9,671 bases of DNA. Source: a virus. Taxonomy: Duplodnaviria > Heunggongvirae > Uroviricota > Caudoviricetes. Of the stretch, positions 1-9,671 are shown in pieces. Below the pieces are notes generated by a model. That model saw only the letters and a list, made by a program, of their open reading frames with translations, ran no database searches and had not been told where the DNA came from. Numbering within the stretch: position 1 is the stretch's first letter; each line of letters starts with the position of its first letter. The stretch lies in the IMG/VR virus record IMGVR_UViG_2681813205_000018, positions 1 through 9,671 of that record. One strand, 5' to 3'. The position numbers and the translations under genes are program-made.

Positions 1-94
1 CATACGCCTCAGGCTGGCTACTTAACCCCTGACCACTGCCGGGTAACTCGAAGTATTGCCCTGCGTTCTGTGGGGCGGGGTGGGTTTATGGATA

Positions 95-150
95 CAATTT
101 ACAAATTAAAATTTAACTGGTCAACATGTTTATTATTAAATTTGTAATTG
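95..150 (-). promoter_or_regulatory. OL/PL-like operator and leftward promoter region
   Basis: Imperfect inverted repeat CAATTTACAAATTAAA (95-110) / TTAAATTTGTAATTG (136-150). On the minus strand a sigma70-like -35 TTGACC (rc of 119-124) and -10 TAAATT (rc of 96-101) with a 17-nt spacer point leftward out of the window. Shares the exact 14-mer TTAAATTTGTAATT with the repressor/cro intergenic region (1378-1391). Confidence 0.35.
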
Positions 151-192
151 CGGGCTGTTGCATCAGTCCCAAAATGGGACTACTATACAGTT

Positions 193-495
193 ATGAAGAT
201 TATCTCAGTTAAAACACTCAGGGATTTTTGGGCGGAGAATCCTGATGCAGAACAACCGCTAAGGGCATGGGTGGATGAGGCGGCAAAAGCTGACTGGAAA
301 AGCCCAGCAGACATTAAGGCACAATACCGAACGGCCAGTATATTGAAAAACCGGCGCGTGGTATTCAACATAAAAGGTAATCATTACCGTTTAATTGTTG
401 CAATTGCGTATCAGCGAGGATGGGTATTTGTTAAATTCATCGGAAACCACAAGGAATACGATGCTATTGATGCTGATACCATCGAACTGGAGTAA
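193..495 (+). CDS. higB: Type II toxin HigB (RelE-fold mRNA interferase family)
   Basis: Same frame as track ORF 148..495, but started at ATG 193 because the track start is a TTG. About 100 aa. Alignable by eye to E. coli HigB (N-terminal I..K.L.D, central VFN..GN..R.V, C-terminal HKEYD). Toxin-first gene order with an HTH antitoxin gene 2 nt downstream. Confidence 0.8.
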   Translation: MKIISVKTLRDFWAENPDAEQPLRAWVDEAAKADWKSPADIKAQYRTASILKNRRVVFNIKGNHYRLIVAIAYQRGWVFVKFIGNHKEYDAIDADTIELE

Positions 496-497
496 GC

Positions 498-857
498 ATG
501 AACATCAAACCTATTCGTACAGAGCAAGATTATGAAGCCGCGTTGCGTGCTGTTGAACCCATGTTCGACAATGAGCCCGAAATTGACACGCCTGAGGGGG
601 ATTTTTTTGAGGTGATGTGTTTGCTAATAGAGGAATATGAAAAAAAACATTATCCCATTGAGCCACCATCCCCAATTGAAGCTATAAGATTTCGCATGGA
701 ACAGCAGGGGCTGACTGTGAAAGATTTGGAACCCGCAATTGGGAAAAAAAATCGGGTTTATGAGGTGTTGAATGGTACCAGAAGCCTTACGTTACCAATG
801 ATTCGCCGTCTTCATAATCAATTTGGTATCCCCCTGGAAAGCCTGGTTGGATTATAA
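498..857 (+). CDS. higA: Antitoxin HigA (XRE-family HTH)
   Basis: 119-aa ORF starting 2 nt after the higB stop. C-terminal HTH segment LTVKDLEPAIGKKNRVYEVLNGTRSLTLPMIRRLHNQFGIP is alignable to the HigA HTH region. Confidence 0.8.
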   Translation: MNIKPIRTEQDYEAALRAVEPMFDNEPEIDTPEGDFFEVMCLLIEEYEKKHYPIEPPSPIEAIRFRMEQQGLTVKDLEPAIGKKNRVYEVLNGTRSLTLPMIRRLHNQFGIPLESLVGL

Positions 858-872
858 AATCTGCTAGTCATT

Positions 873-921
873 TGCCTGATGCTCGTTCCAGAAAAGGAAT
901 GCATCAGGCAGTTTTGTTTTT
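873..921 (+). terminator. Candidate intrinsic terminator after higBA
   Basis: 10-bp inverted repeat TGCCTGATGC (873-882) / GCATCAGGCA (901-910) with inner TTCC/GGAA pairing, followed by GTTTTGTTTTT. Lies between the convergent higA and repressor genes; the 3' arm overlaps the repressor stop codon. Confidence 0.45.
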
Positions 922-1296
922 CTGCCGCAGTAACTCTTCAAGTTTCCGTTTATAGAAATCGCGTTTTTGCTCCATATCACGAATGATCTGCTCTGCGTCG
1001 CTTTGAGGTAACTCATCTAAAAGCGATATGATTTTTCGTTGTTGTTCTGTAAGTTGCGGTTGGTTGTCATTACTGGATACAGCCATTTTATCGCCGAGAG
1101 TTTCTTCTTCCATAAAGAACCAATGGACGGGATGTTGTGAGAGCTCTGCTAATTTTTCCAGTTTATCCATTCTTGGCATCACGCCTTTCAACCAACCTTG
1201 CACGGATTGGGGTTTTACACCAAGACGTCTTCCCAGCTCTGACTGGTTTATATTCAATTCCTGCAACACCTGCTGAAGGCGTTTTACAAAGATCAT
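904..1296 (-). CDS. Prophage repressor, Cro/CI-type HTH (RacR-like)
   Basis: Minus-strand ORF. ATG at 1294-1296 is preceded by GAGGGG; the track start at 1302 is a GTG. N-terminal HTH QSELGRRLGVKPQSVQGWLKG and a charged helical C-terminal tail resembling RacR-type repressors as I recall them. Divergent from the cro-like gene. Confidence 0.7.
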   Translation of the reverse strand: MIFVKRLQQVLQELNINQSELGRRLGVKPQSVQGWLKGVMPRMDKLEKLAELSQHPVHWFFMEEETLGDKMAVSSNDNQPQLTEQQRKIISLLDELPQSDAEQIIRDMEQKRDFYKRKLEELLRQKNKTA

Positions 1297-1338
1297 CACC
1301 ACCCCTCGTAAACTAGTTCCGCGATCCTACAGAAAAAA

Positions 1339-1395
1339 TTGATAAGTGGCATTACAAATAGAAGTTGAAATTTAAATTTAAATTTGTAATTATCG
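1339..1395 (+). promoter_or_regulatory. OR-like operator/promoter region of the immunity switch
   Basis: Intergenic region between the divergent repressor and ydaS-like genes. Palindromic half-sites TTACAAAT (1352-1359) / ATTTGTAA (1382-1389) around an AAATTTAAATTT core. Candidate rightward promoter: -35 TTGAAA (1365-1370), -10 TAATTA (1387-1392). GGAGGG RBS at 1413-1418 precedes ATG 1423. Confidence 0.4.
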
Positions 1396-1422
1396 GTGTC
1401 ATCGTAAAGTTCGGAGGGAAAC

Positions 1423-1683
1423 ATGCAAAAAAGTACTCAAGTGAAAATCCTGTCAATAATGAGCCAATCAGAATTAGGGCGTCGTCTTGGTAAAACACCG
1501 CAAACCATAAGTGGGTGGTTTAAAAAACGAGTGCCAGCGGAGGAGGTTATACCAGCATGTGAGGCGCTTGACTGGGGAGTAACTCCGCATGAATTGCGCC
1601 CTGATAAATACCCTAATCCAACCGATGGTTTACCTGTTGAGTATCAGGCTAACGCACAAGCAGCGGCGGGAGTTGATTCATGA
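1423..1683 (+). CDS. ydaS: Cro-like HTH regulator, YdaS family
   Basis: 86-aa ORF with a strong RBS and an HTH (SQSELGRRLGKTPQTISGWFKK). Occupies the cro position, divergent from the repressor. Its stop overlaps the next start (ATGA at 1680-1683). Confidence 0.75.
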   Translation: MQKSTQVKILSIMSQSELGRRLGKTPQTISGWFKKRVPAEEVIPACEALDWGVTPHELRPDKYPNPTDGLPVEYQANAQAAAGVDS

Positions 1684-2117
1684 AAATCAAGCATGAGCAC
1701 ATCCGCATGGCGATGAATGCGTGGCTGCTTTATCCGAGGGTAGGGCGCAAAAAAATCGCTGATGATATAGCGACAGCATATTTTGAGCTTGAAATGACTT
1801 ATCCACCAATGCATGACACCTCTACGACAGAGGGTATTGGATTGAACATACAAAATATTTTTCGCTGGCTTGAAAAGGATACGCCTGATGCTGTTGAAAA
1901 AATTCAGGCACTAATTCCAGCTATCCTGACTGTTCTTCCGCGTGAACTGCGTTATCACCTCAGTATTTTTGACACTGTTGAGCGCCGTGCATTACTGGCG
2001 GCCCAGGAAGCGTTGAGCACGGCAATTGATGCGCATGATGATGCAGTCCAGGCAGTTTACCGGAAAGCGTATTTCAGCGACGGCGGGTCATCCGGCGAGT
2101 CTGTTGTGGTGCATTGA
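1680..2117 (+). CDS. ydaT: YdaT-like protein (cII-position, Rac prophage toxic protein family)
   Basis: 145-aa ORF translationally coupled to the ydaS-like gene. N-terminus MKIKHEHI and C-terminal RRALLAAQEALSTAIDAHDDAVQAVYRKAYFS match my recollection of E. coli Rac YdaT. Confidence 0.75.
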   Translation: MKIKHEHIRMAMNAWLLYPRVGRKKIADDIATAYFELEMTYPPMHDTSTTEGIGLNIQNIFRWLEKDTPDAVEKIQALIPAILTVLPRELRYHLSIFDTVERRALLAAQEALSTAIDAHDDAVQAVYRKAYFSDGGSSGESVVVH

Positions 2118-2203
2118 TATTTATGCCAGACCCCTGCTGATTCTGTTGATTGGGGAATCACAGAATATCACCAGAGGATGGTTCGTCACAAGATGAGGCA
2201 ATT

Positions 2204-3214
2204 ATGGCCGCATTACCATACATGCAACTGTACATAGCTGATTACCTGGCTGACACCATGCATTTGTCCGCAGAGGAGCACGGTGCGTATTTGTTGCTGA
2301 TGTTCAATTACTGGCAAACAGGGAAACCAATACCTAAAAACAGGCTGGCAAAAATTTCCCGTCTGACTAACGAGCGATGGGCTGATGTGGAACCATCCTT
2401 GCGGGAGTTTTTTTGCGATAACAGCGATGAATGGGTGCATCTTCGGATTGAGGAAGATCTGGCATCAGTCAGGGAAAAATTGACCAAAAAATCAGCCGCC
2501 GGAAAAGCATCTGTTCAGGCCAGAAGAAGCAGAAAGGAAGCATATGTTCAAACAAAACAAGAGAGAGATTTAACAGGTGTTCAAACAAATGTTGGTGTTG
2601 TGTTTGAACATGACGCAAACACAAAAGCAACTAATAAAGATACAGATCTAAAAGAATTAAACCCCACACATAACGTGCGTGAACGCGAGAGTATTCCGAC
2701 CAGTGAGTCGCATGGTGCGCCGTTGCAGACAGCCGAACCTGAATACCTGGACGGCATGAGCGAACCGATCGGGAAATTTTCGATGACTACTGTCTGGCAG
2801 CCGTCGCCGGATTTTCGACAACGGGCAGCAGTGTGGGGTATGGCTCTGCCTGAGCCGGAATTTACACCTGCTGAGCTTGCCGCATTCCGGGATTACTGGA
2901 TGGCGGAGGGGAAGGTTTTCACGCAGGTTCAGTGGGAGCAGAAATTTGCCCGCCACGTGCAGCACGTCAGGGCACAGGTAAAACCAGTCAGCAAGGGGGT
3001 AAGCCATGCAGCATCAGGTGGCACGGCATCACGGGCAGTTCAGGAAATCCGGGCAGCACGCGAACAGTGGGAACGTGAAAACGGATTTATCAGCAACGGA
3101 AACGGCCTGGAAGCTGTGGGAGCTTATGGGGGAGGTGTATTCGAACCGCTGGACTCAGAAGAACGGGGCCGCACCTTCGAAGCTCTGGATTGCCCAGATT
3201 GGTGCGATGACTGA
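2204..3214 (+). CDS. ydaU: Replication initiator, O-like (YdaU/DUF1376 N-terminal domain + DnaT-like C-terminal domain)
   Basis: Frame of track ORF 2150..3214, which starts at a TTG. Chosen start is ATG 2204 (MAALPYMQLYIADYL) with GAGG 7 nt upstream. N-terminal DUF1376-type domain, a low-complexity linker, and a C-terminal FTPAELAAFRDYWMAEG segment resembling the DnaT DNA-binding domain. Immediately precedes the P-like gene. Confidence 0.7.
   Translation: MAALPYMQLYIADYLADTMHLSAEEHGAYLLLMFNYWQTGKPIPKNRLAKISRLTNERWADVEPSLREFFCDNSDEWVHLRIEEDLASVREKLTKKSAAGKASVQARRSRKEAYVQTKQERDLTGVQTNVGVVFEHDANTKATNKDTDLKELNPTHNVRERESIPTSESHGAPLQTAEPEYLDGMSEPIGKFSMTTVWQPSPDFRQRAAVWGMALPEPEFTPAELAAFRDYWMAEGKVFTQVQWEQKFARHVQHVRAQVKPVSKGVSHAASGGTASRAVQEIRAAREQWERENGFISNGNGLEAVGAYGGGVFEPLDSEERGRTFEALDCPDWCDD
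2545..2610. repeat. Candidate origin iterons inside the O-like gene
   Basis: 10-mer TGTTCAAACA occurs directly at 2545 and 2578 and inverted (TGTTTGAACA) at 2601, followed by an A-rich stretch (2615-2660). Lies in the inter-domain linker of the O-like initiator, as ori-lambda lies within O. Confidence 0.3.
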
Positions 3215-3668
3215 ACAGCAAATCCGTCTGGTCTGCCGTCAGTGCATGGACCGCTGCCGGGCGGGTGAAACGTGGCCCCCGGACCTGGCTGAGTTTGTTG
3301 CGCTGATTTCGGAGAGTGGGGCAAATCCATTTGGTCTTACGGTGGATGCCGTGATGGAAGAGTACCGGCGCTGGCGCAATGAATCCTGGCGATACGACGG
3401 GAGTGATAAATACCCGTGGCCACAGCCTGTGCTGTACCACATCTGCCTCGAAATGCGTACCAGAGGGATTGAGCGCCAGATGACGCAGGGTGAGTTAAAA
3501 CTACTTGCAGAACGGCAACTGACGAAATGGGCAAAGCATGTTGGTAACGGGATGAGTGTTCCGCCAGTGCGACGACAACTGGAAGGGGCGAAACACCCGC
3601 AAGGGCCAACGCCAATTGAGCGGCTGAAACAGGAATACGAACGCCGGAAGGCAGCTGGTTTTATTTGA
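3126..3668 (+). CDS. Replication protein P-like (DnaB helicase loader)
   Basis: By-eye alignment to lambda P as I recall it: PPDLAEFVA vs PSPGQFVA, YPW motif, and a C-terminal LT..EL...A...L.......G...P.PV.Q pattern. Start is uncertain: ATG 3126 (GGGAG upstream) is chosen; ATG 3006 would overlap the O-like gene by about 200 nt; ATG 3207 overlaps the O stop. Confidence 0.6.
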   Translation: MGEVYSNRWTQKNGAAPSKLWIAQIGAMTEQQIRLVCRQCMDRCRAGETWPPDLAEFVALISESGANPFGLTVDAVMEEYRRWRNESWRYDGSDKYPWPQPVLYHICLEMRTRGIERQMTQGELKLLAERQLTKWAKHVGNGMSVPPVRRQLEGAKHPQGPTPIERLKQEYERRKAAGFI

Positions 3669-3701
3669 ATCTGAGAAACGATTTTGTCGGAGGAAATTTT
3701 A

Positions 3702-4418
3702 ATGGAAACCGTATTTGACGCACTGAAAGCACTGAAAAGAGCCTCTTCACAGGTAGTGGCGGCCCGCCTTGGAATCAGCCGTGAAGATGCGGTCAACGAA
3801 CTGTGGAAACTGAAGCGCCGCGGTGAAGCGGATAACAAGGGGTCGATGTGGTGGCTGATTCAGGCTGGTGAAAGTGAACCGGTGTCACCGGTACCGAAAG
3901 TGACAGCGCAAATGCTGACTGAGGCGATTGAACAACATGGCCCACAAACGGCGGATGAGCTGGCACTGATGTTCGGGATTACCTCCCGCCGGGCGAATTC
4001 ATCGCTGGCCATGGTAATCAGCAAAGGGCGTCTGATTCGCGTGAATCAGGGCGGTAAATTTCGTTACTGCATACCGGGCGCTGATTTACCGGCAGAGCCG
4101 GAAGCTGCATCCGTAGCGGAAACCGATGGTAAAGCCTTTCCTCAGCCAGCAGGTGTTGCGTTACCAGCTCGGGAAGCAGAAACACAGGAAGAAATAAAAA
4201 CGGAAAGTGTGGCGGTCACAGTGCAGTCACAGCCGTCGTTCACCAGAAAGCATCCGGATGGTCTGATTTTACCATCGCTGCATGTGGCTAACCGCGAGCT
4301 GCGCCGGGCAAAAGGTCAGGTTCAGAAGTGGGAGCGAGTCTGCGCCGCGCTGCGGGAGCTGAACAAGTGCCGGGATATTCTCCGGGATATTACCGCCACC
4401 AGAGAACAGCAGCGGTGA
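3702..4418 (+). CDS. Hypothetical phage protein with two winged-helix-like segments
   Basis: Track ORF 3684..4418 starts at a TTG. ATG 3702 has GGAGG 7 nt upstream. Two HTH-like stretches ([20 protein letters not shown] and [22 protein letters not shown]). Family not recognised. Confidence 0.55.
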
Positions 4419-4450
4419 GTGGGTGGAAGACGTGGTGCCGGGCGGAAATC

Positions 4451-4732
4451 ATGATACTCCGGCAGTGTGCGGGAACGATGAAGGTAAAAAGCGTTGGCGC
4501 ACTTATCGGACGAACTGAAGCGGCAGTGAGAACGAAGGCACGGGAGCTGGGCATCAGCATGATGTTACGTGGTGATTTTCACCCGTCGGCAAAATATTCT
4601 CAGCGTGATATTGAGCTGGCGCGGCAACTGCATCAGAGAGGCATGCAAAGAAGGGAAATTGCCAGAAAATTAGGCATGCCGCTGCGCATAGTGAATAACT
4701 ACGTTTATTTCGACAGGAGGGTGTCTGCGTGA
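4451..4732 (+). CDS. Hypothetical small HTH protein
   Basis: Track ORF 4328..4732 starts at a GTG and overlaps the previous gene. First in-frame ATG after the upstream stop is 4451; ATG 4478 is an alternative. C-terminal QRREIARKLGMPLRIV resembles a sigma-70 region 4 / resolvase-type HTH. Confidence 0.45.
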   Translation: MILRQCAGTMKVKSVGALIGRTEAAVRTKARELGISMMLRGDFHPSAKYSQRDIELARQLHQRGMQRREIARKLGMPLRIVNNYVYFDRRVSA

Positions 4733-4956
4733 AAATCCTGTATCAGGATTACGGCCCGGTGGGGCAGGTGGTTATCAGCAGTACTGTAATGGAGTTTCGG
4801 AAGCATAACCGTGTGGTGGATGCTGTGCTGTTAACCTGTCCGGGGATATCGGCGAGTCGTGCAGGTGTGTTTATTATGAAGACGAAATTATATGGCAGTA
4901 AGGCGTGGATAAAGAAGGCGTATCGTGTAGCGTTGCAGGAGGTTAACAGTGAGTGA
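4729..4956 (+). CDS. Hypothetical protein
   Basis: GTG start at 4729 overlaps the upstream stop (GTGA) and has AGGAGGG 8 nt upstream. 75 aa. No recognisable family. Confidence 0.45.
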   Translation: MKILYQDYGPVGQVVISSTVMEFRKHNRVVDAVLLTCPGISASRAGVFIMKTKLYGSKAWIKKAYRVALQEVNSE

Positions 4957-5260
4957 AATTAAAGAAATGCCGGTAGTTCGTGACGGATATGGCTACTGGA
5001 CACATCCTGAATATGAAAAATTCTGTGATGGTCGGGAATATATTTCAACGGAAGAGTTTAACGCCTGGATGGAGGAAAATAATCTTCAATACGTCCTCTG
5101 CTTCAGAGATGAAGGATGTGCTGACCTTGATGCGTGTGATGCTGATATTTCTGCATGGGAACCGGAACGACCAGAGGGCGATGGCTGGTTTATTGGTTCC
5201 ATTCATGATACGGAAGATGGCCCGGTTTGTGTCTGGTTGCGAAATAAGGCTGAAGCATAA
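4949..5260 (+). CDS. Hypothetical acidic phage protein
   Basis: GTG start at 4949 with AGGAGG 6 nt upstream, overlapping the previous stop. 103 aa, Cys/Asp-rich. The competing track ORF 4980..5285 is in another frame and lacks an RBS. Confidence 0.5.
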   Translation: MSEIKEMPVVRDGYGYWTHPEYEKFCDGREYISTEEFNAWMEENNLQYVLCFRDEGCADLDACDADISAWEPERPEGDGWFIGSIHDTEDGPVCVWLRNKAEA

Positions 5261-5359
5261 AGGCGATAAACCAACTAACAACTAAATACTGAAGATTTAA
5301 ATCAGAAACGATTTTTATTAAATCCTTAACCGGAGGGATTCCTGCACCCTCAGAACATC

Positions 5360-5390
5360 AGGAGGCCGCCCGAAAGGGCGGTAAGAAATG
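5360..5390 (+). promoter_or_regulatory. Shine-Dalgarno plus hairpin translation-initiation structure
   Basis: AGGAGG (5360-5365) lies 22 nt upstream of ATG 5388, but a 6-7 bp GC hairpin (CCGCCC 5366-5371, GAAA loop, GGGCGG 5376-5381) between them would bring the SD to about 6 nt from the start codon when folded. Confidence 0.4.
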
Positions 5391-5606
5391 AAACATTATT
5401 TAGAAAAAAATTACCCACGAAAGAGCAGAACAACAGAGTTTCTGTTTTTCATTCTGTTTATAGTGTTGATGATACCGATATCCCCGCTATTACTGGTCTG
5501 GATAATTGGAAGGACATTTGAACCAGTTATTGAGCTATATACCGATGTGACATGGGAATCATTCAGCGCACTGCACAATAAAATTAATCCGTATAAGGAA
5601 AACTGA
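5388..5606 (+). CDS. Small single-pass membrane protein (hypothetical)
   Basis: 72-aa ORF in a visibly AT-rich segment. One strongly hydrophobic stretch, FLFFILFIVLMIPISPLLLVWIIG, after a basic N-terminus. Confidence 0.5.
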   Translation: MKHYLEKNYPRKSRTTEFLFFILFIVLMIPISPLLLVWIIGRTFEPVIELYTDVTWESFSALHNKINPYKEN

Positions 5607-5607
5607 T

Positions 5608-6165
5608 ATGAGCACTATTACCAGAGAACGCGCGGAGATTAAATCATACATCACAGGCTTCCTGAGCGACTCGGCGCACGATAACAAGTCTTCAGACAGC
5701 CTGCTGGCTAATGTGTTTCGTATCGCGCTGGCATCACTGGAAGCAGAGCCGATAGCAATGGTAGTGCCTGATGAAATGGATTTGCTTACCTGCCATCTCG
5801 ACGGTGTAACTAAAACATATGCTGATGGCTGGAACGCCTGCCGCGTCGCCATGCTTCAGGCCGGAAACTTTCGGGAAAATAAGAATTCGTCAACCAACAA
5901 TTTTCGGGAAATCTCGGAAACGTCAACCAGATCTCCGATAACTCTGGATGGCTGGATAAGCTGTACTGAGCGAATGCCTGAAAAGAGCCAGAACGTGCTT
6001 ATTTCGATGAATATCGATAGCGAGGCTGGGCCATTAATATATTCCGCACGCTATCTCGGAGGCACGTTCCGGCGCGGAGGTATAGCAGTTAGTCCGGGTA
6101 ATGATCTTAGGCAAGCAACCCACTGGATGTCGCTACCAGAACCGCCGCAGGAGGTGAATCAATGA
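5608..6165 (+). CDS. DUF551 domain-containing phage protein
   Basis: ATG 5608 is 1 nt after the upstream stop, with AAGGA upstream. C-terminal WISCTERMPE...THWMSLPEPP matches the DUF551 signature as I recall it. Confidence 0.65.
   Translation: MSTITRERAEIKSYITGFLSDSAHDNKSSDSLLANVFRIALASLEAEPIAMVVPDEMDLLTCHLDGVTKTYADGWNACRVAMLQAGNFRENKNSSTNNFREISETSTRSPITLDGWISCTERMPEKSQNVLISMNIDSEAGPLIYSARYLGGTFRRGGIAVSPGNDLRQATHWMSLPEPPQEVNQ
5866..5931 (+). repeat. Imperfect 33-bp tandem duplication inside the DUF551 gene
   Basis: AACTTTCGGGAAAATAAGAATTCGTCAACCAAC (5866-5898) and AATTTTCGGGAAATCTCGGAAACGTCAACCAGA (5899-5931). Encodes an 11-aa repeat NFRENKNSSTN / NFREISETSTR. Confidence 0.6.
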
Positions 6166-6245
6166 CCTGGCCTGAAGCATTCACAACGGTAGGAATTGCG
6201 ATGGCGGTGGCGCTGGTGGTGTATTCGATTTGCCGCTGGGGATAA
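6162..6245 (+). CDS. Unannotated 27-aa hydrophobic peptide
   Basis: ATG 6162 overlaps the DUF551 stop (ATGA) and has AGGAGG 8 nt upstream (6148-6153). Encodes MTWPEAFTTVGIAMAVALVVYSICRWG, a single predicted TM helix. Absent from the ORF track because of its length. Confidence 0.35.
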   Translation: MTWPEAFTTVGIAMAVALVVYSICRWG

Positions 6246-6503
6246 AAACGGTTTGCGGGAAAAGGATAGTTAAGTAGAATTGCAGCGGGTGCTTGAGGCT
6301 ATCTGCCTCGGGCATGAACACCAACGGCAGATAGAGAAAAGCCCCAGTTAACATTACGCGTCCTGCAAGACGCTTAACATTAATCTGAGGCTCAATCCAT
6401 GCTGAACACATGTAGGTTAGCCTCTTACGTGCCGAAAGGCAAGGAGAAGCAGGCTATTGTTAACACCAAGCTGTAATGTCCCCTTTGAACCATTCTAAAA
6501 TGT

Positions 6504-6530
6504 CCCCAGACAATTCTCTGGGGGATTTTT
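6504..6530 (+). terminator. Terminator-like hairpin immediately upstream of the transposase start
   Basis: Perfect 7-bp stem CCCCAGA (6504-6510) / TCTGGGG (6517-6523) with a 6-nt loop, then ATTTTTC, ending 1 nt before ATG 6532. Confidence 0.4.
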
Positions 6531-6531
6531 C

Positions 6532-7872
6532 ATGATCAAAGAGACTGTTACGATGAGTCATAAGGAACTCCACCGACTTCAGATTATTCAGGAGTCAATT
6601 AATCGACATATTACTCAGGAACAAGCTGCGGCACGCATTGGCATTTCTATTCGGCAGGTTAAACGTCTGGTGCAACGGTATAGAAATGAAGGGCCTTCTG
6701 GTCTGGTTTCCCACCGACGTGGAAAGCGTCCTAATAATTCCTTTTCTACTGAATTCAGAGCAACAGTAATTTCACTCCTCAAAGGCCGTTACGCTGATTT
6801 TGGACCTACGTTTGCGTGCGAAAAATTGCGCGAGATACACGGTTTATCTTTATCCGTTGAAACTCTCAGAAAGTGGATGATAGAAGAGGGGTTATGGCGT
6901 GAACGCCGTCGTAAAATTGCCCGTATATATCAACGCCGCATGCGACGACCATCTTACGGTGAACTGATCCAGATTGATGGCTCACCTCATGACTGGTTTG
7001 AAAATCGAGGCCCCAGATGTACACTGATCGTTTTCATTGATGATGCCACCAGTGCGTTGATGGCGTTGCGTTTTGTGCCTGCTGAAACAACCCGGGCTTA
7101 CATGGAAACCCTCCGGGGTTACCTTGATGATCATGGCGTACCGCTCGCTCTCTACTCTGATAGACACAGTATATTCAGGGTAAATAACCCAGAGCGGGAA
7201 GGTGAGCTGACCCAGTTCACTCGTGCGATAAAGACACTGGGCATCGAGCCAATCCATGCCAACAGCCCGCAGGCAAAAGGGCGGGTAGAGCGCGCCAATC
7301 AGACACTACAGGACAGGCTGGTCAAAGAAATGCGGCTTCAGAATATCAGTGATATTGAAACAGCAAATGCATGGTTGCCGACCTTTATTGAAGCCTATAA
7401 CAACCGGTTCGCTACGTCGCCTCGTACTACTGATAATGCTCATCTTGATGTGCACCATTCTGAAGAGGAACTGGGTTATATCTTCAGCCTACAGGCGAAG
7501 CGCGTTCTGTCTAAAAATCTCACTTTCCAGTACAAAAGCAGTGCGTTTCAGGTACGCAGTGAGGGCCGGGGATATCGACTTAGGCATTCGGTTGTTACTG
7601 TATGCGAGAACTTTGACGGTGAAATTAACGTTCTGTATGACGGGAAAGCGCTGGGCTGGGAAAAGTATGTTGATGGCCCGGAGCCTATACCACTGGATGA
7701 TGAAAAGAGTGTCCATGAACGAGTGGATAATGCCCGTATTGATTTACGCTCAAAATACTATGTTAAACCTAAAGCTGACCATCCCTGGCTTACGCGCCGA
7801 ACGCAAAGTCATCAGCAAGTTAAGCCCCCGAAGTTACCTAAAAAGAAGCCTGATCCCGATAAAATAGATTGA
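6532..7872 (+). CDS. DDE transposase, IS481/ISNCY-like (rve integrase core, N-terminal HTH)
   Basis: 446-aa ORF. N-terminal HTH (ITQEQAAARIGISIRQVKRLVQRY). Catalytic triad candidates in LIQIDGS, LYSDRHS and AKGRVERANQ with integrase-like spacing. Pattern resembles IS481-family transposases (IVFIDDATS..., PQAKGRVE). Alternative start ATG 6553. Confidence 0.8.
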   Translation: MIKETVTMSHKELHRLQIIQESINRHITQEQAAARIGISIRQVKRLVQRYRNEGPSGLVSHRRGKRPNNSFSTEFRATVISLLKGRYADFGPTFACEKLREIHGLSLSVETLRKWMIEEGLWRERRRKIARIYQRRMRRPSYGELIQIDGSPHDWFENRGPRCTLIVFIDDATSALMALRFVPAETTRAYMETLRGYLDDHGVPLALYSDRHSIFRVNNPEREGELTQFTRAIKTLGIEPIHANSPQAKGRVERANQTLQDRLVKEMRLQNISDIETANAWLPTFIEAYNNRFATSPRTTDNAHLDVHHSEEELGYIFSLQAKRVLSKNLTFQYKSSAFQVRSEGRGYRLRHSVVTVCENFDGEINVLYDGKALGWEKYVDGPEPIPLDDEKSVHERVDNARIDLRSKYYVKPKADHPWLTRRTQSHQQVKPPKLPKKKPDPDKID

Positions 7873-7926
7873 AACCAAGATCGATTCGGTTGAGTGCATA
7901 TCCATTCATAGGGTAGATTCTTAAGT

Positions 7927-7993
7927 CGCGTTTCTGGTGTTCATTTTCGGGGGGGGGGGTTACTTGTTTTACCGGGGATATGCCAGAAACGCG
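7927..7993. repeat. Perfect 11-bp inverted repeat enclosing a G11 homopolymer
   Basis: CGCGTTTCTGG (7927-7937) and its exact reverse complement CCAGAAACGCG (7983-7993), separated by 45 nt that contain eleven consecutive G (7949-7959). Confidence 0.6.
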
Positions 7994-8190
7994 CTGAGTC
8001 AGTCTGGGCGGTGCGCGTAATGGGACGTTATGGTAAATACCATTCTGCAATAACTATCCATGTATAGATCATCCTTTATCTCCGTATGGCATAACCCATC
8101 AGAATCCATTAAGCATGACAAAACCTTCTTTATAAATAGCACTTTCAGTAGTACTTGATGTAGAAAATTGATTGGCATTTGTGTTTTTAC

Positions 8191-8219
8191 TTGATATCTC
8201 CGTGATATACTGATATTAA
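8191..8219 (+). promoter_or_regulatory. Candidate sigma70 promoter for the two-gene cassette
   Basis: -35 TTGATA (8191-8196), 17-nt spacer, -10 TATTAA (8214-8219) in an AT-rich intergenic region about 50 nt upstream of ATG 8273. Confidence 0.3.
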
Positions 8220-8272
8220 TTAAAGCGTAAATTATCTAAAACTAGATTTTCAATATGTTATAGGTGGTTCAA

Positions 8273-8806
8273 ATGCCAGGTACTAGGTGTGTTACTGTTC
8301 TTACTGCTCGTGGAATTACTGAGATTTTAAAAACAGGTGGAAGCAAAGCCTGGAGACTCAATGCAACCCATGCAGGAAAATGTTCGTATGTTGTTTGCGT
8401 TCAGAACTCGAAGATTGATTGGGGAACCCAGGAGGCAAAGCATCACCATGCTTTTATGATTGGCCGTATTTCTGGGATTAGCAGGATTCCAGACCATCCC
8501 AAGAAGCGTTGGATAATCAACATTGATTCTTATGCTGAGATTGATATCCCTGACCAATGGGATGGAAACCGGAATCCGGTTTCTTACCGAAACCTTGAGG
8601 ATATGGGGATAGATCTTGATACTCTCGATTTTAAACCTGTTGGTCATATTGTATCTGGAATAAAACAGACTAGTGGTGACGAATACGATGAGTATGAAGA
8701 AGTTGATGTCAGCGATAGACCTTTAAGCCTGAAAGAAGCTAAGGCTGGTCTAGCACTTCATTTTGGCGTCAATGAGGATGACATTCAGATCACTATTAAG
8801 GGGTGA
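8273..8806 (+). CDS. Hypothetical protein (unrecognised family; first gene of IS-flanked cassette)
   Basis: ATG 8273 with AGGTGG 5 nt upstream; the track start at 8264 is a GTG. 177 aa: basic N-terminal domain of about 120 aa, acidic linker (DEYDEYEEVDVSD), short C-terminal segment (LSLKEAKAGLALHFGVNEDDIQITIKG). AT-rich codon usage unlike the flanking phage genes. Confidence 0.6.
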   Translation: MPGTRCVTVLTARGITEILKTGGSKAWRLNATHAGKCSYVVCVQNSKIDWGTQEAKHHHAFMIGRISGISRIPDHPKKRWIINIDSYAEIDIPDQWDGNRNPVSYRNLEDMGIDLDTLDFKPVGHIVSGIKQTSGDEYDEYEEVDVSDRPLSLKEAKAGLALHFGVNEDDIQITIKG

Positions 8807-8811
8807 CCTTT

Positions 8812-9396
8812 ATGGAATCATTCTCTGTTGAGCATTGGTTACCACAGGCTACTGCTGGAGATAGTCAGGCTAGATTTTATTTGGGGAAGATATTCTCATG
8901 CGGGCTGGGTGTTCATCAGGATTATAAGCTGGCTATATACTGGTTTCAGCTTGCAGCGGAGCAAGGCCATGATGATGCCCAGTTTAATCTTGGGTGGGTA
9001 TATCATTTGGGGTTAGGTGGATATAAACATGTCCAAAAAGCGTCTGAATGGTATCAGAAGGCCGCTCTGCAAGGTCATGCAGAGGCTCAGTTTCATCTAG
9101 GAAGGCTGTATGCTTTCTCTTATTTAAGAAATGATGGGCTTGCAGTTGAATGGTTTCTCTGTGCCGCGAAGCAAGGCTATAGTAGTGCGCAATTTAAACT
9201 TGGCTGGATGTATCATCTCGGTATGGGCGTTGAGCAAAGTGACAGGCAGGCTTTCCATTGGTTTATTCGGGCTGCTGAGCAAGATCATGCAGGGGCTCAG
9301 GCATCTCTTGGTGAGATGTATAAGCATGGGTGGGGAGTCGAGCAAGACGAAACGATGGCACAGTATTGGTTTCGACTCGCAAGAACAATGCCATAG
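8812..9396 (+). CDS. Sel1-repeat (TPR-like) protein
   Basis: ATG 8812 with AAGGGG 8 nt upstream, 5 nt after the upstream stop. At least five tandem Sel1-type repeats (e.g. AIYWFQLAAEQGHDDAQFNLGWVYHLGLG; ASEWYQKAALQGHAEAQFHLGRLY; AFHWFIRAAEQDHAGAQASLGEMYKHGWGV). No signal peptide evident. Confidence 0.8.
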   Translation: MESFSVEHWLPQATAGDSQARFYLGKIFSCGLGVHQDYKLAIYWFQLAAEQGHDDAQFNLGWVYHLGLGGYKHVQKASEWYQKAALQGHAEAQFHLGRLYAFSYLRNDGLAVEWFLCAAKQGYSSAQFKLGWMYHLGMGVEQSDRQAFHWFIRAAEQDHAGAQASLGEMYKHGWGVEQDETMAQYWFRLARTMP

Positions 9397-9400
9397 CATC

Positions 9401-9424
9401 AAGCCCGCCCTGCGGGCTTTTTTA
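9401..9424 (+). terminator. Rho-independent terminator of the cassette
   Basis: 8-bp stem AAGCCCGC (9401-9408) / GCGGGCTT (9412-9419) with a 3-nt loop, followed by a T-run, 5 nt after the Sel1 gene stop. Confidence 0.7.
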
Positions 9425-9671
9425 TGTGTCAAGGCTAAGTTCAGATGTCCGTCGTAGGGCAAAGTTCAAATGTCCTCTCTGTGCCTATAACCTCTTCTGA
9501 GTAAAAGGTGAGGTGTACTGGCAATAGCGGACACTACCATTTGTTCTTTTTTTAAGCAGCCATCTGATGATATTTTTCCCTGAAGGCTGCCGGGGAGATA
9601 TTCCCCAGACGAGAGTGACGACGCTGACGATTGTAGAAAATCTCAATGTATTCCCGTATTACTGAGATGGC
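9425..9671 (-). mobile_element. IS3-family insertion sequence, 3' end (continues beyond window)
   Basis: Contains the C-terminal end of an IS3-family OrfB on the minus strand. Plus-strand TGTGTCAAGG at 9425 is consistent with an IS3-type ...CA terminus. Subterminal direct repeats AAGTTCAGATGTCC (9438-9450) / AAGTTCAAATGTCC (9463-9476). Exact end not established. Confidence 0.45.
9552..9671 (-). CDS. IS3-family transposase OrfB, C-terminal fragment (truncated by window edge)
   Basis: Minus-strand translation from the window edge reads AISVIREYIEIFYNRQRRHSRLGNISPAAFREKYHQMAA then stop (plus 9552-9554). The FYNRQRRHS.LG..SP..F motif is the conserved C-terminus of IS3-family OrfB transposases. 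Confidence 0.7.
   Translation of the reverse strand, partial: AISVIREYIEIFYNRQRRHSRLGNISPAAFREKYHQMAA

Follow-up and report, generated by a model that had tools for sequence, protein, structure and literature searches.

The described prophage switch closest to the one analyzed here is that of CP-933P (Sp12) in Escherichia coli O157:H7, where PaaR2 and YdaS footprint the right operator (OR) and repress the leftward early promoter (PL) through OR-like operators (PMC8630535), the toxin-antitoxin pair paaA2-parE2 lies between paaR2 and PL (PMC8630535), and a high-affinity site for YdaT, OM, lies at the ydaS/ydaT junction (PMC9986795). In Qin, DicA represses the promoter dicBp (PMC10448788, PMC3441716). 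Here we describe a switch region in 9,671 nucleotides from a virus of the Caudoviricetes (IMG/VR record IMGVR_UViG_2681813205_000018, positions 1 to 9,671; this whole stretch is called the window), in which a repressor gene and a higBA toxin-antitoxin pair lie between two short regions, 95-150 and 1350-1391, that share a sequence motif. We consider it quite probable that these regions are the left operator (OL) and OR of a lambda-like prophage switch in pathogenic E. coli, with higBA as a self-regulated cassette between them, and TT[AG][CT]AA hexamers in AT-rich surroundings would most likely be its operator sequence, a new one. An earlier reading of the window from its letters (the original prediction) had proposed the two regions as OL and OR of one immunity module, and comparison with other genomes supports this: from E. 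coli through Salmonella and Sodalis to Arsenophonus, the motif goes with the repressor and its Cro-like partner, with or without higBA. No paper on this higBA-containing immunity type was found in the literature searched.

The window resembles CP-933P in its divergent repressor and YdaS-like cro genes, in a short repressor without a cleavage domain, in a YdaT analogue of CII with the sequence TTGATT-N6-AATCAA at the junction of its gene with cro, in a toxin-antitoxin pair between the repressor gene and PL, and in a leader and ydfABC-dicB operon downstream, which makes CP-933P the closest experimental precedent for the layout. Because of its Pfam gene content and the match of its YdaT to structure 8bt1, the region is, by its predicted products, a lambdoid immunity region of the Rac/Qin/CP-933P type. 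The exact YdaT operator at the junction implies a leftward, YdaT-controlled promoter of the PRE type. The specificity determinants are unlike those of CP-933P. BLASTP of the window repressor against the protein at the PaaR2 position of locus L122 detected no homology (E 12), and the N-terminal domain of the L122 protein matches lambda CI, whereas that of the window repressor does not. CP-933P operators are four evenly spaced 18-bp repeats with the consensus GTTTAGTAA, in contrast to TT[AG][CT]AA hexamers 31-32 or 43 bp apart. In addition, the CP-933P pair is cotranscribed with its repressor, whereas higBA lies on the opposite strand, convergent with the repressor gene, and has a predicted promoter and palindrome of its own.

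The shared motif is defined by exact copies and by their layout. Four exact copies of the 8-mer TTACAAAT occur in the window, at 99-106(+), 140-147(-), 1352-1359(+), and 1382-1389(-), with the complement ATTTGTAA reading at 140-147 and 1382-1389, and each region holds one inverted pair. The count compares with 0.45 copies expected on both strands, and only 1 of 200 shuffles reached four. With one mismatch allowed there was no enrichment (9 found, 11.8 expected), which places the signal in the exact copies and in the layout of the two inverted pairs. Direct reading and pattern searches confirmed every coordinate that had been given for the 14-mer TTAAATTTGTAATT (136-149 and 1378-1391) and for half-sites in both regions. 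The 14-mer is exact nowhere else in the window, and at up to three mismatches it gives eight matches, all within the two regions, where 1.76 are expected and none of 200 shuffles reached eight. A search for the half-site elsewhere in the prophage had also been suggested; over 26 kb of this prophage (L001), the 14-mer is confined to the two regions, and TTACAAAT occurs five times, only one copy lying outside them. What the original prediction missed is that the longest match between the regions is inverted: the repeat finder aligned 99-116 with 1372-1389 at 17 of 18 bases, from which it follows that the two regions are mirror-image promoter/operator units. Chance repetition in AT-rich DNA was considered and is ruled out by the shuffles and, above all, by conservation across genera.

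The mirror symmetry is plain when each predicted promoter is written in its own direction. PL reads ATTACAAAT, N16, TTGACC, a spacer ending in AATTTG, and TAAATT, while the rightward early promoter (PR) reads ATTACAAAT, N5, TTGAAA, a spacer ending in AATTTG, and TAATTA; the two are mirror-image homologues with a distal site, a -35, a spacer containing AAATTTG, and a -10. The OL unit has about 11 bp more than the OR unit between distal site and -35, and hexamer centers are 43 bp apart on the left and 31-32 bp apart on the right. At OL, the proximal block covers the -10 and spacer of the leftward promoter, and the distal site stands ahead of two predicted promoters, 15-16 bp before the PL -35 and 10 bp before the higB -35; the PL start is predicted near 88-90. 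At OR, the distal site adjoins the -35 of the candidate repressor gene promoter (PRM) and precedes the PR -35 by 5 bp, and the proximal site overlaps the PR spacer and -10. In its candidate role, PR would drive the cro-like gene, ydaT, and the replication genes.

Both regions stand where a lambdoid phage would have them, one between divergent repressor and cro genes with hexamers overlapping predicted PR and adjoining candidate PRM, the other beyond the repressor gene and over a leftward early promoter. The left region is best read as a leftward PL/OL because the genes to its left in close E. coli relatives, ydfA-ydfB-ydfC, belong to the dicB operon that DicA represses in Qin; the minus-strand early genes left of PL are ydfA/B/C, DicF, dicB, exo, xis, and int. 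The same leftward layout is present in Rac and in PaaR2-type loci. The claim that higBA lies between OL and the repressor gene is borne out by the gene positions. The further proposal that operators of the repressor overlap the promoter of higBA is not supported: the overlapping promoter is the predicted PL (124-96), and higB has a conserved candidate promoter of its own (158-186). A rightward promoter from the left copy of the 14-mer, with AATTGC or TAATTG as -10 and a poor -35, was rejected as unconserved. An alternative PRM at 1402-1375 from the promoter scan was also rejected, being unconserved even among E. coli variants; PRM at 1324-1352 would fit a block, CTACAG...TTGATA, that is kept in E. 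coli and Salmonella and partly in Sodalis.

Comparison of loci separated the motif from higBA. The module is present in 148 of 5,426 complete E. coli genomes, mostly enterohemorrhagic E. coli (EHEC) of serogroups O26, O103, O111, and O45, and in all 148 higBA and the repressor occur together. Because the two are inseparable within E. coli, we searched more widely. Hexamers T[TC][AG]CAA and TTG[TC]A[AG] are kept alongside repressor homologues down to 47% identity, and five Arsenophonus/Phlomobacter loci and one Sodalis locus have no higBA. In those loci OL follows immediately on the repressor stop codon, as AATCTACAAATTAAAATTTAAATTGTCAAT, about 17 AT-rich bases, and AATTTGTAA. A Salmonella locus that does carry higBA (L020) has the same OL alongside a different leader, which again shows OL going with the repressor module rather than the leader. 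The two motifs segregate cleanly, TT[AG][CT]AA with the repressor and GTCC[CT]-N5-GGGAC with higBA, as the higBA-free loci keep the hexamers and plasmid higBA homologues lack them.

Within these loci, conservation is concentrated on the proposed sites. The OL alignment of 11 loci gives AAT[CT]TACAAAT.AAAA..TAA...GT[CT]AA...AA[TA]TTG[TC]A[AG], with the proximal block AAT[CT]TACAAAT.AAAA..TAA (nearly) invariant from E. coli to Arsenophonus and the distal AA[TA]TTG[TC]A[AG] kept 42-44 bp away in every lineage in which OL was aligned. Among the five Arsenophonus-group loci, all but L006 (TTAACA) have TTGACA as the PL -35. Salmonella and Sodalis share TTGACT, and E. coli has either this or TTGACC. 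Most lineages have a TAGATT -10, with TAGAGT in Sodalis. At OR, an ungapped block of about 40 bp, CA[TC]T[AG]CAA...TTG.AA...TG[TC]AAT, spans the PR region while both 5' untranslated regions diverge. The distal CA[TC]T[AG]CAA is kept in nine of nine aligned lineages, the proximal [TC]TG[TC]AAT is conserved, and the spacing is 31-32 bp in E. coli, three Salmonella, Sodalis, and three Arsenophonus loci. In Salmonella L020 and Sodalis (L026), the PR -35 TTGAAA is replaced by TTGCAA, a perfect self-complementary operator hexamer, giving three sites spaced 13 and 19 bp apart, which hints at a third operator over the PR -35 in some lineages.

The slot between the repressor stop codon and OL varies in content. 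It holds higBA in E. coli and in one Salmonella locus (L020), a 424-amino-acid PLD-family protein in S. diarizonae, PaaA2 and a TM2-domain protein in S. Javiana, and nothing in Arsenophonus (about 70 bp).

The two proteins expected to act at these sites have closely similar HTH segments. In an AlphaFold2 model (mean predicted local distance difference test score, 75.6), the repressor shows a five-helix HTH (helix-turn-helix) domain (residues 1-61), a flexible linker of low confidence (62-83), and a C-terminal helical hairpin (84-129). The HTH superposes on those of P22 c2, 434 Cro, and SinR, the closest structures, at 1-2 Å, and the structure search returned no solved close relative. Pfam gives HTH_3 and HTH_26 only, with no S24 self-cleaving peptidase domain, and RecA-dependent self-cleavage is therefore not expected. 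There are 76 homologues besides the query's own sequence; those at 47-89% identity come from Salmonella, Sodalis, Arsenophonus, Phlomobacter, and Serratia, and the recognition segment VKPQSVQ with the following W is invariant among homologues down to 47% identity. Residues 13-38 of the Cro-like protein are 58% identical to the repressor HTH over 26 residues (QSELGRRLGKTPQTISGW versus QSELGRRLGVKPQSVQGW, a near match), and the two segments are near-identical through to where the recognition helix begins (QSELGRRLG-x-x-PQ[ST][IV]). Every lineage conserves the Cro-like HTH. Because the HTHs are near-identical, shared operators would be expected, as in lambda, 434, P22, and CP-933P, and the repressor, and probably the Cro-like protein as well, is predicted to bind the hexamers.

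In the case of higBA, the evidence points to independent regulation. A toxin gene (HigB, RelE-like) upstream of a gene for an HTH antitoxin is the order of a HigBA type II system, and a perfect palindrome, GTCCCAAAATGGGAC, stands as a putative operator for autoregulation in the spacer of the candidate higB promoter. GTCC[CT]-N5-GGGAC recurs at the matching position in Salmonella L020 and upstream of plasmid higBA of E. coli (two plasmids), Citrobacter, and Diaphorobacter (69-90% HigB identity), where it sits just 5' of the TAnnAT -10. None of these four plasmid homologues has a TTACAAAT-type site upstream. The promoter pattern TTGnnn-N17-TAnnAT is kept in four E. coli variants, Salmonella L020, and three of the four plasmid homologues; in the remaining one (L118) the -35 is TTTACA. 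The higB -10 ends six bases before the ATG, and because no Shine-Dalgarno sequence precedes that ATG the mRNA is probably leaderless. A gap of 6-7 nt from -10 to ATG is also found in L020 and three plasmid homologues, and L118 has a 25-nt leader with a Shine-Dalgarno sequence instead. At the other end, the likely terminator overlaps the stop codon of the convergent repressor gene, its right arm and T-run falling within the 3' end of that gene. Most likely, higBA is an independent, self-regulated cargo inserted between the repressor stop codon and OL.

Three other explanations of the sites were weighed. Palindromes within their own promoters are the usual targets of type II antitoxins, HigA belongs to the HTH proteins, and the left region lies just upstream of higB, so the TTACAAAT/ATTTGTAA sites might be operators of HigA (or HigBA), serving higBA autoregulation at 95-150 and cross-regulation of the switch at 1350-1391; the co-occurrence of higBA with the repressor in every module-bearing E. 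coli genome would suit this as well. Yet OL and OR sites are kept in higBA-free loci of Arsenophonus, Phlomobacter, and Sodalis, plasmid higBA homologues lack them and carry instead the palindrome found here at 166-180, and the left sites flank the leftward promoter, not that of higB. HigA as the binder was rejected on this split between higBA-free loci with the sites and plasmid higBA without them, and we give the explanation almost no weight. It is also highly improbable that the Cro-like, YdaS-family protein alone binds the hexamers while the 904-1296 protein recognizes something else or acts indirectly. Its HTH is as well conserved across lineages as that of the repressor, and YdaS footprints both promoters in CP-933P (PMC8630535), but with HTH segments nearly identical in the two proteins, shared operators are the simplest expectation.

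A more serious alternative is that the shared sequence is promoter architecture only, with PL and PR derived from one AT-rich promoter and the true operators elsewhere or not shared. The 17/18 match does span the spacer and -10 of both predicted promoters, and no hexamer has a convincing dyad partner beside it. Moreover, the 17-mer TACAAATTAAAATTTAA occurs in 88 contigs of the viral collection, 24 with the repressor and 64 without; because those 64 are chance matches in AT-rich DNA, the 17-mer alone is not diagnostic outside enterobacterial-type DNA. Such an origin would not account for distal hexamers that lie outside the core promoters, repeat the proximal ones in inverted orientation, and keep their distance (31-32 bp; 42-44 bp) across lineages with diverged flanks, nor for a nearly invariant spacer, which in sigma-70 promoters is normally unconstrained. 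The heteroimmune relatives Rac, Qin, and the PaaR2-type locus carry different repeats at precisely these positions, with the -35 and leader unchanged, which is the signature of immunity-specific operators. We regard promoter architecture as an improbable explanation overall and favor operators of the repressor, probably shared with the Cro-like protein.

Several observations weigh against this reading of the sites. The OR spacing is 24 bp in two Arsenophonus loci, and a recognizable OL/PL was not found in two Salmonella relatives with other cargo (L022 and L024), which are for that reason uninformative about OL. The O26 reference lacks ydfA and ydfB and has about 600 bp from PL to ydfC. Every promoter is a consensus match, and AT-rich regions easily yield such matches and small palindromes. 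The proximal sites are inseparable from the core promoter, and their conservation could partly reflect promoter function. Finally, the sites do not take the form of classical tandem 17-bp dyads: each region has two conserved hexamers in place of the three tandem dyads of about 17 bp of the lambda, P22, and 434 type, and no good second half-site was found 10-12 bp from any hexamer. When partners of the 434 type (ACAA-N6-TTGT) or of the type of the DicA operator Oc were sought by direct reading, only two of four bases matched at every site.

Comparison with Qin, Rac, and lambda places the operator sequence apart from those described. The original prediction called the repressor RacR-like, which holds only for architecture and position. 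RacR is weakly similar (23% identity, pairwise E 4e-5), and DicA is about equally close, aligning over its full length (22% over 125 residues, pairwise E 2e-7); this pairwise match suggests distant homology with DicA. DicA and the window repressor each combine an HTH with a C-terminal "LP.S[DE]" helix and have no RecA cleavage site, and in Qin, as here, a repressed promoter on the same strand follows the repressor gene and serves ydfA-ydfB-ydfC-dicF-dicB. Oc, a contiguous 20-bp dyad, TTGTTAGTcataACTAACAA, is unrelated to the window hexamers (PMC3441716). The Oc-type dyad TTGTTAGT-N4-ACTAACAA is present in Qin (PMC3441716) and absent from the window OL and OR. DicC has no similarity to the window Cro-like protein, and Qin, unlike the window, has no cargo between dicA and dicBp. 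Rac shares the gene order RacR/YdaS/YdaT and a leader after OL flanking a minus-strand TTGACA -35; its direct repeats around the -35, [AT]AGG[TC][AT]ATGCCTAAT, are unlike the window motif, RacR has 158 amino acids against 130, and the Rac slot has no toxin-antitoxin pair. As in lambda, repressor and Cro would share operators at two divergent regions, with accessory genes (rexAB in lambda) inside the immunity region. Lambda has three tandem 17-bp dyads per region and an S24 self-cleavage domain, and the window has neither; its cargo, unlike that of lambda, is transcribed against the repressor gene from its own predicted promoter. The distance from OL to OR is about 2.4 kb in lambda against about 1.25 kb here, and lambda looping is a possible parallel.

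The surrounding prophage gives the module its left boundary. The first 2.2 kb of the window are identical to a prophage in EHEC O26:H11 11368, O103:H2 12009, and many related strains. To the left, the O26 record has, all on the minus strand, ydfC, dicB, a DUF1482 gene, an exonuclease gene, a DUF4224 (xis-like) gene, and a frameshifted integrase gene, with the DicF RNA between ydfC and dicB according to an Rfam search. In close E. coli relatives the adjacent gene on the left is DUF1391 (ydfA), followed by ydfB and ydfC; in O26 (L001 11486-12000), unrelated sequence with a plus-strand open reading frame (ORF) of the "ECs_2282 family zinc-binding" type takes the place of ydfA and ydfB. Between PL and these genes, phages of other immunity match positions 3-86 of the window at 92-95%, and a leader of about 90 nt (window 1-90, minus strand) is also found after the heteroimmune OLs of Rac and a PaaR2-type locus and in Sodalis and Arsenophonus. 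Copies lie at L123 2020-2115, L122 3090-3180, L026, and L006-L010 (two copies per locus), with the two Arsenophonus copies about 1.9 kb apart. The leader has the invariant blocks CAATAC, CGAGTTA, and TAAGTAGCCAGCC.GAGGCGTATGAACATGA.GGC and ends ahead of ydfA in a Shine-Dalgarno sequence and the ATG of a short ORF (about 22 codons). RNAalifold gave neither consensus structure nor covariation for it, and the leader has no Rfam match; Rfam on OL plus leader returned only DicF and a subthreshold STnc100, both further left. Immediately to the right of each leader is a different repeat set around a minus-strand TTGAC-type -35. Because the leader is shared with heteroimmune OLs, the immunity-specific sequence starts at about 87-95, at the predicted PL start, and this is the mosaic joint expected for lambdoid phages.

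Coordinates of the features are collected in Table 1. Further Pfam matches in the window are to DUF1376/DnaT-like and P-like replication proteins. Farther right are a transposase gene (HTH and rve_3 integrase core) at 6532-7872 and a gene for a Sel1-repeat protein at 8803-9396; since the O26 11368 annotation shows different genes there, the right part of the window is probably another strain variant.

Table 1. Predicted genes, sites, and promoters of the immunity region (positions in the window)
Feature	Position	Strand	Description
Putative OL promoter-proximal site	96..116	-	Hexamer TTACAA 99-104 (8-mer 99-106)
Candidate PL, leftward early promoter	96..124	-	-35 TTGACC 124-119, 17-nt spacer, -10 TAAATT 101-96 (promoter scan)
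Putative OL distal site	136..149	+	Hexamer TTGTAA 142-147 (8-mer 140-147); exact 14-mer
Candidate higB promoter	158..186	+	-35 TTGCAT 158-163, 17-nt spacer, -10 TACTAT 181-186
Candidate HigA operator	166..180		Perfect palindrome (GTCCCA-AAA-TGGGAC) in higB promoter spacer
higB	193..495	+	Pfam HigB_toxin, E 4.8e-33
higA	498..857	+	HTH_3; resembles E. coli HigA structures 5ifg and 5ycl, E ~3e-9
Likely higBA terminator	873..921	+	Perfect 10-nt hairpin 873-882/901-910, T-run 911-921
Immunity repressor (predicted)	904..1296	-	130 aa; Pfam HTH_3
Candidate PRM, repressor gene promoter	1324..1352	-	-35 ATGCCA 1352-1347, 17-nt spacer, -10 TAGGAT 1329-1324
Putative OR distal site	1351..1359	+	Hexamer TTACAA 1352-1357; exact 8-mer
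Candidate PR	1365..1393	+	-35 TTGAAA 1365-1370, 17-nt spacer, extended -10 TGtAATTAT 1385-1393 (promoter scan)
Putative OR proximal site	1378..1391	+	Hexamer TTGTAA 1384-1389 (8-mer 1382-1389); exact 14-mer
Cro-like (YdaS-family) regulator	1423..1683	+	Pfam YdaS_toxin and HTH_3
Putative YdaT (CII-like) operator	1673..1690	+	Exact TTGATTcatgaaAATCAA = TTGATT-N6-AATCAA, zero mismatches, cro-stop/ydaT-start junction
YdaT-family protein	1680..2117	+	Pfam YdaT_toxin; PDB 8bt1 (CP-933P YdaT), E 5e-29

The positions of the motif, its statistics and conservation, its co-occurrence with the repressor, and its dissociation from higBA are observations. Binding by the proteins, the identities and start sites of the promoters, the oligomeric state, and the regulatory signs are inferred in the following model. 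The window would begin where the immunity region of a Rac/Qin/CP-933P-like lambdoid prophage of EHEC O26/O103 has its left edge, and the repressor, probably along with the Cro-like protein, would recognize TT[AG][CT]AA hexamers with AT-rich flanks. In each control region, a proximal site would cover the spacer and -10 of an outward lytic promoter and an inverted distal site would lie upstream of the -35. At OR, the outward PR would serve the cro-like gene, ydaT, and the replication genes, with the distal site adjoining PRM, and at OL the leftward PL would serve the conserved leader and then the ydfC-dicF-dicB-exo-xis-int operon. The hexamers, about three helical turns apart at OR and about four at OL, would occupy one face of the DNA and bracket the -35. 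That spacing, together with the flexible linker and hairpin, suggests an oligomer on two same-face hexamers: through the linker of about 20 residues and the hairpin, it would fill both sites and exclude RNA polymerase. With no self-cleavage domain in the repressor, induction would require either an antirepressor or a flip driven by Cro, as in Qin. In this model higBA would be transcribed convergently to the repressor gene from 158-186 and autoregulated through the HigA palindrome.

Two extensions of the model are possible, each of which we consider unlikely. One is that the repressor couples higBA to the lysogenic state: bound at the distal OL hexamer (142-147), or engaged in a loop between OL and OR with higBA and the repressor gene inside, it could alter the activity of the near-leaderless higB promoter. 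If this is true, HigB activity would shift upon prophage induction or superinfection, and the cassette would be an addiction or abortive-infection device wired to immunity. The other concerns an unusual binding mode, in which the repressor may bind single hexamers three or four turns apart around the -35 and not contiguous dyads.

The lambda paradigm is not overturned by this locus, which has a textbook layout with what appears to be a new operator sequence, and the value of the analysis lies in annotation and in testable sites. An operator motif, promoters, and module boundaries can now be put forward for an uncharacterized immunity type with relatives in Salmonella, Sodalis, and Arsenophonus. 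After CP-933P, higBA would be the second independent toxin-antitoxin pair in the slot between repressor gene and OL, here clearly a self-contained insertion. With higBA, a PLD-family protein, and PaaA2 all found in it, the slot is a hot spot for defense or addiction cargo.

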